From an uncultured Mycoplasmatota bacterium (GTDB lineage: Bacteria > Bacillota_I > Bacilli_A > RF39 > UBA660): 64,000 nt of DNA. Of the stretch, positions 29,207 through 29,461 are shown piece after piece. A model generated the notes under the pieces. It ran no database searches. It saw only the letters and a program-made list of their open reading frames with translations, and was not told the DNA's origin. The stretch is taken from positions 2,002 through 66,001 of the forward strand of contig UQRY01000001.1 in assembly GCA_900543675.1 (NCBI GenBank), in the 5' to 3' direction. Numbering within the stretch: position 1 is the stretch's first letter; every line of letters starts with the position of its first letter. The position numbers and the translations under genes were made by a program.

Positions 29207-29461
29207 TTACAAAGTTAATGGATTAAAGAATAGTAAGAAGAATACAAAGGCAAATAAGAATAATAAGAACACAGTAGTCACAATCAAGATCGTAATCACG
29301 GAATGAACGACATCCGCTTTAGTTTCAGGATTTCTCCCTACTGCTTCAGCCACTTTTGAAGCCATAATTCCTATTCCTATTCCAAGACCTAAAAAAGCAA
29401 GTCCCAACATCCAGCCAATAGCATTCATTGTAGCAGATAAAATACTTTCCATAAATTTCAC
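29207..29461 (-). CDS. F-type ATPase c-subunit-like proteolipid lacking the ion-binding carboxylate
   Basis: 84-aa hairpin: glycine-rich helix 1 [18 protein letters not shown], loop GRNPE (cf. ARQPE), helix 2 [20 protein letters not shown]. The position 17 residues after the loop E, where canonical c has E/D, is Thr. Confidence 0.6.

Follow-up and report, generated by a model that had tools for sequence, protein, structure and literature searches.

To our knowledge, every proteolipid ring characterised so far in F-, V- or A-type ATPases carries ions, and c hairpins that lack the ion-binding carboxylate are known to us only from fused proteolipids in which other hairpins hold the site, such as c1 of Acetobacterium woodii. 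F1-like machines that act with surface proteins and not in ion transport have been described in mycoplasmas, namely the Type 2 ATPase (the gliding G1-ATPase) and the Type 3 ATPase (F1-like X0, MIB-MIP) (PMC11864180; PMC12994834). Both types are described as specific to mycoplasmas, with no counterpart in other bacteria (PMC3369863; PMC11864180; PMC12994834). Here, we analysed a stretch of 64,000 nucleotides (nt) from an uncultured Mycoplasmatota bacterium (assembly GCA_900543675.1, contig UQRY01000001.1, positions 2,002 to 66,001; referred to as the window), in which a gene for a homolog of the ring-forming subunit c lies in an operon together with genes for F1-like subunits, a presumptive stator and giant surface proteins. 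A preliminary description, made from the nucleotide sequence, had pointed out that this c-like protein lacks the ion-binding glutamate or aspartate. Our analyses indicate that it is a member of the c-subunit superfamily by fold and profile which fails the feature defining a functional c subunit, and that it should not carry the annotation of one. The gene cluster apparently represents a conserved, ion-uncoupled, rotary-ATPase-like system of gut Firmicutes that has been undescribed so far; no prior description of such a cluster was found in the full-text literature, of which most subscription journals were outside coverage.

Alignment with the Na+-binding c subunit of Ilyobacter tartaricus (PDB entry 1yce) places E65 of that protein (in AVAESTG) on T63 of the c-like protein, 17 residues after the E of the loop GRNPE, which is the Thr that the preliminary description had proposed from a manual alignment. 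Residues are numbered here according to an open reading frame (ORF) of 84 amino acids (aa), and T63 corresponds to T60 in the 81-aa protein defined below. The same alignment pairs E48 (RQPE) with E46 (RNPE), Q32 with I30, S66 with V64, T67 with F65, Y70 with F68 and D52 with D50. Similarly, hhalign pairs RQPD of the Escherichia coli c subunit with RNPE at a probability of 94.9%, and D61 of E. coli comes to lie at the same Thr. The D of the ETKAD segment, whose placement at the ion-binding position had been named as an outcome that would overturn the earlier claim, was rejected as an ion-site residue; the 1yce alignment excludes such a placement, as this D is aligned with D52 of I. tartaricus at the cytoplasmic end of helix 2, near the loop. 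At the remaining positions of the Na+ site, residues are hydrophobic across the family (Q32 to I/L, S66 to V/I, T67 to F/L and Y70 to F/L). With the carboxylate gone and the other Na+ ligand positions hydrophobic, there is no canonical H+ or Na+ site, as had been suspected for the single protein, and this is true of the whole family. When all ORFs of at least 35 aa in the window were searched with hmmsearch, no other proteolipid was detected, and as the only proteolipid that the cluster encodes has one hairpin and lacks the site, the entire ring would be blind to ions. The absence of a subunit a beside c, also remarked on earlier, extends to all of the approximately 60 syntenic loci described below, none of which encodes a subunit a in the cluster, and no cluster protein matches a subunit a of the PF00119 type. 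It is thus very probable that the ring is ion-blind and that subunit a is not present in the cluster.

The loss of the carboxylate is not a peculiarity of the window protein. At the position 17 residues after the loop glutamate, 180 unique family sequences show T (127), A (32), S (12), V (5), M (3) or N (1), and none shows D or E. Also, the lack of acidic residues in helix 2, which had been noted for the window protein, is a family-wide trait, as 178 of the 180 sequences contain no D or E from helix 2 through the C-terminus. As a positive control, the 24 full-length canonical single-hairpin c subunits obtained in the same exhaustive search all have Glu at exactly this position (24/24), and some of these control proteins also possess a GRNPE loop. 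A conservation profile was calculated for 44 representatives of less than 85% identity. The column equivalent to the carboxylate is the most variable one of helix 2 in this set, and mean entropy amounts to 0.58 for the F1-docking loop, which is the most conserved segment, versus 1.32 for helix 2. In the c-like family, the glycines of helix 1 do not vary, and G17, G22, G39, N41 and P42 are invariant in a diverse 17-member alignment. Bacilli-like and Lachnospiraceae members of the family share 60-75% identity. Because of this conservation pattern, and because the canonical controls keep their Glu, we conclude that selection, as far as it can be read from sequence comparison, preserves the packing of the ring and its docking to F1 and no longer acts on the ion site. 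The exhaustive search also returned numerous fused F-type c subunits of 150-435 aa with 2-5 hairpins per chain (P0139, P0141, P0142, P0149, P0187 and others), in which Glu is retained in some hairpins and Gln, Gly or Asn is found at the ion site in others; these chains are unrelated to the cluster studied here.

The ORF 29207..29461 is present on the minus strand, and its translation is identical to the 84-aa sequence reported in the preliminary description, including the helix-1 motif GLGIGIGI, the loop GRNPE and the helix 2 quoted there. The reverse complement at the start region of the gene reads AATAAGGAGTGAAATTTATGGAA and contains a Shine-Dalgarno sequence AAGGAG 8 nt 5' of the ATG at 29452; the spacer between the two includes the GTG at 29461. 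Due to this spacing, and because nearly all of the 120 closest database homologs are 81 aa long and start with ME, the gene probably starts at ATG 29452 and encodes a protein of 81 aa (MESILS...) rather than starting at GTG 29461 and encoding 84 aa. The Pfam family PF00137 (ATP-synt_C) is matched with 32.2 bits, above the gathering score of 24 (E = 1.3e-7), over residues 14-76, which confirms the family membership claimed earlier. Searches with phmmer gave end-to-end alignments with the A. woodii c1/c2 subunits of 4bem (E = 1.7e-11 and 5.7e-8), with I. tartaricus c of 1yce (E = 1.6e-6) and with chloroplast c subunits, the best match in the PDB being 4bem_J (A. woodii c1). Fourteen NCBIfam models for c subunits were matched and all of them stayed under their cutoffs, the best being NF005363 with 34.9 bits versus a cutoff of 71. 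At NCBI and JGI the protein is annotated as F0F1 ATP synthase subunit C. A total of 1647 relatives were retrieved from the databases at E ≤ 0.01, and the 120 best matches share 77% identity or more with the window protein. An identical sequence is found in a metagenome-assembled genome (MAG) from chicken gut, Candidatus Scybalousia (now Alloscybalousia) intestinigallinarum, Bacilli incertae sedis. The genus name Scybalousia belongs to a taxon of the Bacteroidales in the current taxonomy, in which Candidatus Alloscybalousia is the name of the Bacilli genus from chicken gut.

The c-like gene belongs to a tightly packed minus-strand operon of 21 kb (36118 to 14664) with the gene order 1742-aa giant, 469-aa protein, c, b-delta, alpha, gamma, beta, 89-aa protein, 182-aa protein, 245-aa anchor and 2924-aa giant. 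A promoter and terminator scan was uninformative, with fewer promoter-like sites than in shuffled sequence. Relatives are encoded in 342 stretches according to a pattern scan restricted to one genome per species; 80 loci were retrieved and compared by tblastn and by ORF maps. In about 60 of these 80 loci, which belong to distant Firmicutes lineages, the same order of a 10-11-gene unit was found, and the genes flanking this unit are not conserved among the loci. Carriers occur among Mollicutes-like gut Bacilli (Mycoplasma sp. CAG:472 and relatives), Erysipelotrichaceae, Lachnospiraceae, Oscillospiraceae and Eubacteriales Family XIII. The Lachnospiraceae carriers include isolates, namely the cultured Kineothrix alysoides KNHs209 and Hominiventricola filiformis CLA-AA-H276 as well as a Merdisoma strain. 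Even where the c-like proteins are only 33-39% identical (P0197, P0153), the architecture is the same and the giants encoded beside them carry pAdhesive_6, Flg_new or fn3 domains.

Some loci depart from the common layout. In the Mycoplasma sp. CAG:472 group (L009-L018, L022, L029 and L067), gamma has been relocated to a place after the gene for the anchor of about 240 aa, and the cluster is otherwise unchanged. In the MAG JAEEIH01 (Lachnospiraceae Tb.RUG.141), the cluster occurs at least three times at separate loci (L027, L047 and L061), which suggests paralogous machines with different surface proteins. A reduced variant, L088, has ORFs of 178, 130 and 142 aa before c, a beta subunit of 547 aa and an 80-aa ORF after it, and no giant genes are present within its 7.6-kb contig. 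A plasmid-borne or mobile origin of the cluster was considered and rejected, as a tblastn search with the c protein gave no match in PLSDB.

The catalytic part of the machine is F1-like throughout. On the atpA model TIGR00962, alpha scores 397 bits versus a cutoff of 484, and the E. coli control reaches 869. The alpha P-loop GDKKTGK[ST] is conserved. About 60 residues are lacking relative to the canonical length, and the C-terminal helical domain is reduced by about half, PF00306 being matched only at positions 1-65 of 126, i.e., over the first half of that domain; with a median length of 443 aa, the short alpha is a trait of the family. In the case of beta, the atpD model TIGR01039 gives 477 bits, which is above the cutoff of 463, the Kineothrix ortholog reaches 448 and is below it, and the E. 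coli control scores 875. The beta ORF beginning at TTG shares about 116 nt with the end of gamma, and its homologs have a median length of 454 aa. About 34 codons downstream there is an ATG in the same frame (MEIGKV...), and the true start of beta is probably located there, leaving a protein of about 450-454 aa. The Walker A motif GGAGVGKT and the catalytic motif GERSREG are present in 62 of 67 beta orthologs, and the window beta carries DELSNED; judging from these residues, the catalytic motifs of beta are intact. Gamma is syntenic in 69 loci. The best PDB relatives of alpha and beta are chains of the Bacillus PS3 F1, with the G1-ATPase ranking lower. By homology, alpha, beta and gamma are thus classed as F1-type proteins that have diverged strongly.

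We read the 245-aa protein encoded after c as a fusion of b and delta, that is, as the stator of the machine. Its AlphaFold2 (AF2) model has a predicted local distance difference test (pLDDT) of 78.7. It begins with an N-terminal helix of 70 residues and, beyond a linker without order, continues as a bundle of six helices and a small alpha/beta domain. When this model was compared with the PDB using Foldseek, the top 31 matches were all delta/OSCP chains, including the mycobacterial b-delta fusion, and it is because all top matches are the same protein that the delta assignment is made. In addition, the C-terminal motif KTxYDxxIxEGIxIxYxxxxYDYSI aligns with the C-terminus of E. coli delta, and 4 of 29 b-delta orthologs show a weak match to PF00213. 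The window protein itself matches no Pfam family, sequence comparison of the protein with the PDB and of its b part with E. coli AtpF gave nothing significant, and an extra homolog search that started from the b-delta alignment added one sequence. According to the positive-inside rule, the charges after the N-terminal helix predict a cytoplasmic delta body.

The position otherwise taken by epsilon is occupied by the 89-aa protein, whose size is that of epsilon's N-terminal domain alone, without the C-terminal inhibitory helices. It showed no similarity to E. coli epsilon in hhalign and none to any PDB chain in a profile search. The 182-aa protein that follows is the only protein of the cluster with multiple transmembrane (TM) segments and has no Pfam or NCBIfam match. 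As a candidate for a diverged subunit a it was rejected, for the family displays no invariant column and no conserved Arg, and hhalign assigns a probability of 0.2% to a relationship with E. coli AtpB.

The four remaining proteins of the unit are single-pass proteins that share an N-terminal module of about 200 aa that combines a TM helix with a membrane-proximal domain rich in beta structure. In hhalign comparisons, the shared module was recognised with probabilities of 79-98% and E values from 1.5e-5 to 7.5e-15: the 245-aa anchor matches its three anchored paralogs at their N-termini with probabilities of 92-96.5%, the modules of the 469-aa and 1742-aa proteins are paralogous (E = 7.5e-15), and the module of the 2924-aa protein matches the other three with probabilities of 79-92%. 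All four have Lys/Arg-rich segments before their TM helices, so that, following the positive-inside rule, the bulk of each would be extracellular. The 469-aa protein is syntenic in 74 loci and the 1742-aa giant, whose fn3 match has an E value of 2e-10, in 62 loci, and a downstream giant ORF was found in at least 32 loci. In orthologs of the first giant from Kineothrix/Merdisoma, a collagen triple-helix repeat directly follows the module (L039:1691-8230, residues 268-324; L025:1105-8148, residues 272-309), at the place where the 1742-aa protein of the window has an acidic Glu/Pro/Thr linker. This collagen repeat hints at a trimeric fibre. At the C-terminus of the 2924-aa protein, a basic tail (…GLYIFIGICTLIGGLFVLLLTYRQKENAAK) comes after a hydrophobic segment and no LPXTG motif is present; this protein may be anchored at both ends. 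Coordinates of all features are given in the table.

Features of the c-like gene cluster in the window, with c first, followed by the other proteins of the putative motor and by the membrane and surface proteins
Feature	Coordinates	Strand	Evidence
c-ring subunit homolog, 81 aa	29207..29452	(-)	PF00137 match; 1yce/4bem alignment; ribosome-binding site
b-delta fusion (putative peripheral stalk/stator), 245 aa	28454..29191	(-)	N-terminal TM helix; two-domain body like delta/OSCP; AF2 model and Foldseek
F1 alpha-like subunit, 445 aa	27105..28442	(-)	PF00006, E = 6e-74
F1 gamma-like central shaft, 262 aa	26324..27112	(-)	PF00231, E = 7e-22, 78.9 bits versus gathering score 39.9
F1 beta-like catalytic subunit, ORF of 484 aa from TTG	24985..26439	(-)	TIGR01039
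Protein in epsilon position, 89 aa	24723..24992	(-)	Position and size kept in 70 loci
Membrane protein, 182 aa, 4-5 TM	24191..24739	(-)	Positional ortholog in 61 loci
Single-pass anchor, 245 aa	23452..24189	(-)	N-in, C-out by positive-inside rule; shared module alone
Single-pass surface protein, 469 aa	29465..30874	(-)	Shared N-terminal module and fn3-like C-terminal part (weak fn3 match)
Giant surface protein, 1742 aa (first gene of operon)	30890..36118	(-)	N-terminal TM, shared module, acidic linker, fn3/Ig-like repeats
Giant surface protein, 2924 aa (last gene of operon)	14664..23438	(-)	N-terminal TM, shared module, GLUG PF07581, C-terminal hydrophobic anchor

We propose that an atp operon would have been duplicated and repurposed in this system, retaining c, b-delta, alpha, gamma, beta and the epsilon-position protein and dropping subunit a, while b and delta would have been fused into a single stator protein. 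The c-like protein retains the features required of a rotor ring, namely the GxGxGxG packing motif of helix 1 and the cytoplasmic R-N-P loop on which gamma/epsilon would dock. Hydrolysis of ATP in alpha3beta3, held in place by the membrane-anchored b-delta stalk, would make gamma and the ring turn in the membrane. Such turning of the ring relative to the stator is expected because a competent alpha3beta3, a gamma shaft, a docking loop and a membrane-anchored stalk are present, and no ion should be moved while the ring rotates, because there is neither a subunit a nor an ion site. As rotor and stator are both retained over phylogenetic depth, relative rotation itself would be the product, and the invariant linkage to a multi-TM protein and to four paralogous anchors suggests that it acts on surface proteins across the membrane, for example by moving, tensioning, resetting or rotating them. 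Conserved ring glycines and docking loop, together with b-delta and the fixed presence of giants, argue for a repurposed rotary motor and not for a broken ATP synthase. That the cluster encodes an ATP-driven rotary motor which is uncoupled from ions and acts on surface adhesins, its rotation serving as mechanical work on the giants, is the reading we favour and consider reasonably probable, and we rate the full model of mechanical coupling between rather doubtful and reasonably probable. In a more far-reaching and tentative version, to which we give somewhat less than even chances, the system would constitute a fourth class of motor derived from F-type enzymes, one that arose independently and that passes rotation to a hetero-oligomer of the four paralogs and so forms an ATP-powered rotary or cranking appendage. 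Two of the four paralogs would then be giant fibres, collagen-like in some lineages, and the appendage might be used in adhesion, motility or release. If this were true, it would be the first c-ring to serve as a transmembrane drive shaft and not as an ion turbine.

Several points weigh against a rotary motor acting on surface proteins, for which the formation of the ring, its rotation and, above all, its coupling to extracellular proteins are inferred. The reduced variant (L088:1-5579), whose c protein (P0140) also is devoid of the carboxylate, is without a b-delta gene between c and alpha. For the window b-delta protein, E values of the Foldseek matches to delta are modest (5e-3 to 0.5) and TM-scores (template modelling scores) are low, and the assignment of the 89-aa protein to epsilon is purely positional. 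The shared membrane-proximal module has no relative in Pfam or the PDB and its AF2 model, built from the four window paralogs only, is unusable (pLDDT of 45.6), so that nothing indicates how torque would be received.

Some of the same points would fit a static anchor, in which the ring merely tethers an F1-derived hexamer that exports, unfolds or inserts the giant adhesins, comparable to the F1-related FliI/FliJ ATPase, which serves type III export. Very large signal-anchored proteins always flank the cluster, the L088 variant manages without the stator gene, and alpha and beta match FliI/SctN models with E values between about 1e-50 and 1e-67, although such matches are common to all F1 subunits. 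However, alpha and beta persist as separate subunits together with a gamma shaft, the b-delta peripheral stalk has been kept as well, and a peripheral stalk is needed only against the torque of a rotor. Furthermore, an export-gate-like protein is not encoded in the cluster, and it is the F1-docking loop that is the most conserved segment of c. Altogether, we consider a static anchor unlikely.

Alternatively, the cluster might encode an ordinary ion-translocating F-type ATPase or synthase with a subunit a gene at some other place and with a c ring that uses an unconventional ion site, for instance at Asp50/His53, two residues that are fairly conserved. The annotation at NCBI and JGI and the score of beta above the atpD equivalog cutoff are in line with such an enzyme. 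In contrast, Asp50 aligns with D52 of I. tartaricus at the cytoplasmic edge of the membrane and not mid-membrane, His53 is replaced by Q, R, S, N or G in 17 of the 44 diverse members, and the middle of helix 2 has no conserved polar residue; the canonical c subunits of the control set keep their Glu without exception, alpha and c remain far under the NCBIfam equivalog cutoffs, and the unit is tied to surface proteins in every lineage. An ion-coupled enzyme therefore appears very improbable. Decay of a duplicate atp operon to a non-functional remnant in reduced genomes would explain why subunit a and the carboxylate were lost, why alpha is truncated and why the epsilon-position protein is minimal, but it is hard to reconcile with intact, tightly packed ORFs in more than 60 loci of separate families, large-genome Lachnospiraceae among them, with the identity of c between Bacilli-like and Lachnospiraceae members, with conserved catalytic motifs and with three copies of the cluster in one MAG, and we give this explanation hardly any credence.

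A conserved ring without an ion site separates the turbine and rotor roles of the c-ring and suggests that the rotor role alone is selectable. Also, F1-like machines with surface proteins would extend beyond the mycoplasmas to Lachnospiraceae, Oscillospiraceae, Erysipelotrichaceae and uncultured Mollicutes-like gut Bacilli, and as a recognisable rotor and stator are retained, structural interpretation may be easier than for the mycoplasma systems. The existence of cultured carriers makes the rotary hypothesis directly testable. For metabolic reconstructions from gut MAGs, the present annotation as "F0F1 ATP synthase" would be misleading, as it points toward an ion-coupled ATP synthase.

Among known systems, the c-like protein is closest to the Na+-type c subunits of I. 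tartaricus (1yce) and A. woodii (c2 in 4bem), with which it has in common a single two-helix hairpin of about 80 aa, the GxGxGxG motif, an R-N/Q-P-E loop and a C-terminal NP[LF]. Its gene also occupies the matching place in the operon, immediately before the b/delta gene. In contrast to those proteins, the equivalents of E65, Q32, S66, T67 and Y70 are all apolar and there is no subunit a partner in the cluster. The second hairpin of A. woodii c1 and the multi-hairpin c/K subunits of V/A-type enzymes provide a precedent for a hairpin that has no carboxylate and still packs into a ring. However, in rings of such fused proteolipids, other hairpins hold the ion site and the ring transports, whereas here the sole proteolipid of the cluster is one hairpin devoid of it. 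The b-delta protein resembles its mycobacterial counterparts (7nkd_d and 7njk_d), which are among its fold matches, in combining a b-like membrane helix and a delta/OSCP body in one chain. The mycobacterial proteins differ in being much longer (330-440 aa) and in being part of a proton-driven synthase in which they act together with another b subunit and with subunit a.

For a contact between the ring and the four anchored paralogs, the V-ATPase offers a possible model by analogy. Its c-ring encloses single-pass accessory proteins (Voa1; ATP6AP1/Ac45 and ATP6AP2) that have large extracytoplasmic domains and turn with the ring. The V-ATPase ring with its accessory proteins still pumps protons, and we know of no mechanical work performed by these accessory proteins.

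With regard to function, the closest likeness is to the mycoplasma ATPases of Types 2 and 3, in which F1-derived alpha, beta, gamma (and epsilon) subunits without an ion-translocating Fo are likewise linked genetically to the surface proteins that make use of them, i.e., to the giant leg/crank proteins or to MIB-MIP (PMC3369863; PMC11864180; PMC12994834). The membrane sectors differ, as Types 2 and 3 have a 12-TM protein and a two-TM protein and lack both c and b/delta, whereas the present cluster encodes a c ring and b-delta. Genes of Type 3 are arranged in the order 12-TM protein, cytoplasmic protein, gamma, epsilon, membrane protein, alpha and beta (PMC12994834), in contrast to the order c, b/delta, alpha, gamma, beta and epsilon position found here, and the cluster contains no 12-TM ORF. 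The carriers, too, are different, being non-mycoplasma gut Firmicutes. A special kinship of alpha and beta to those of Types 2 and 3 was rejected, as their scores are no better than those of E. coli AtpA and AtpD and as the G1-ATPase ranks below Bacillus F1 in the PDB. On the Type 2 models MMOB1660 and MMOB1670, the window proteins reach 399 (cutoff 600) and 393 (cutoff 850), and E. coli AtpA and AtpD reach 412 and 495; on the Type 3 models MSC_0619 and MSC_0618, they reach 308 (cutoff 520) and 412 (cutoff 570). Similarly, all scores on the N-ATPase models TIGR03324, TIGR03305 and TIGR03323 are under the cutoffs (367 versus 750, 421 versus 752 and 20 versus 282, respectively). The cluster therefore looks like an analogue of the mycoplasma Type 2 and Type 3 systems that is independent of them and goes back to a separate repurposing of a Firmicutes atp operon.

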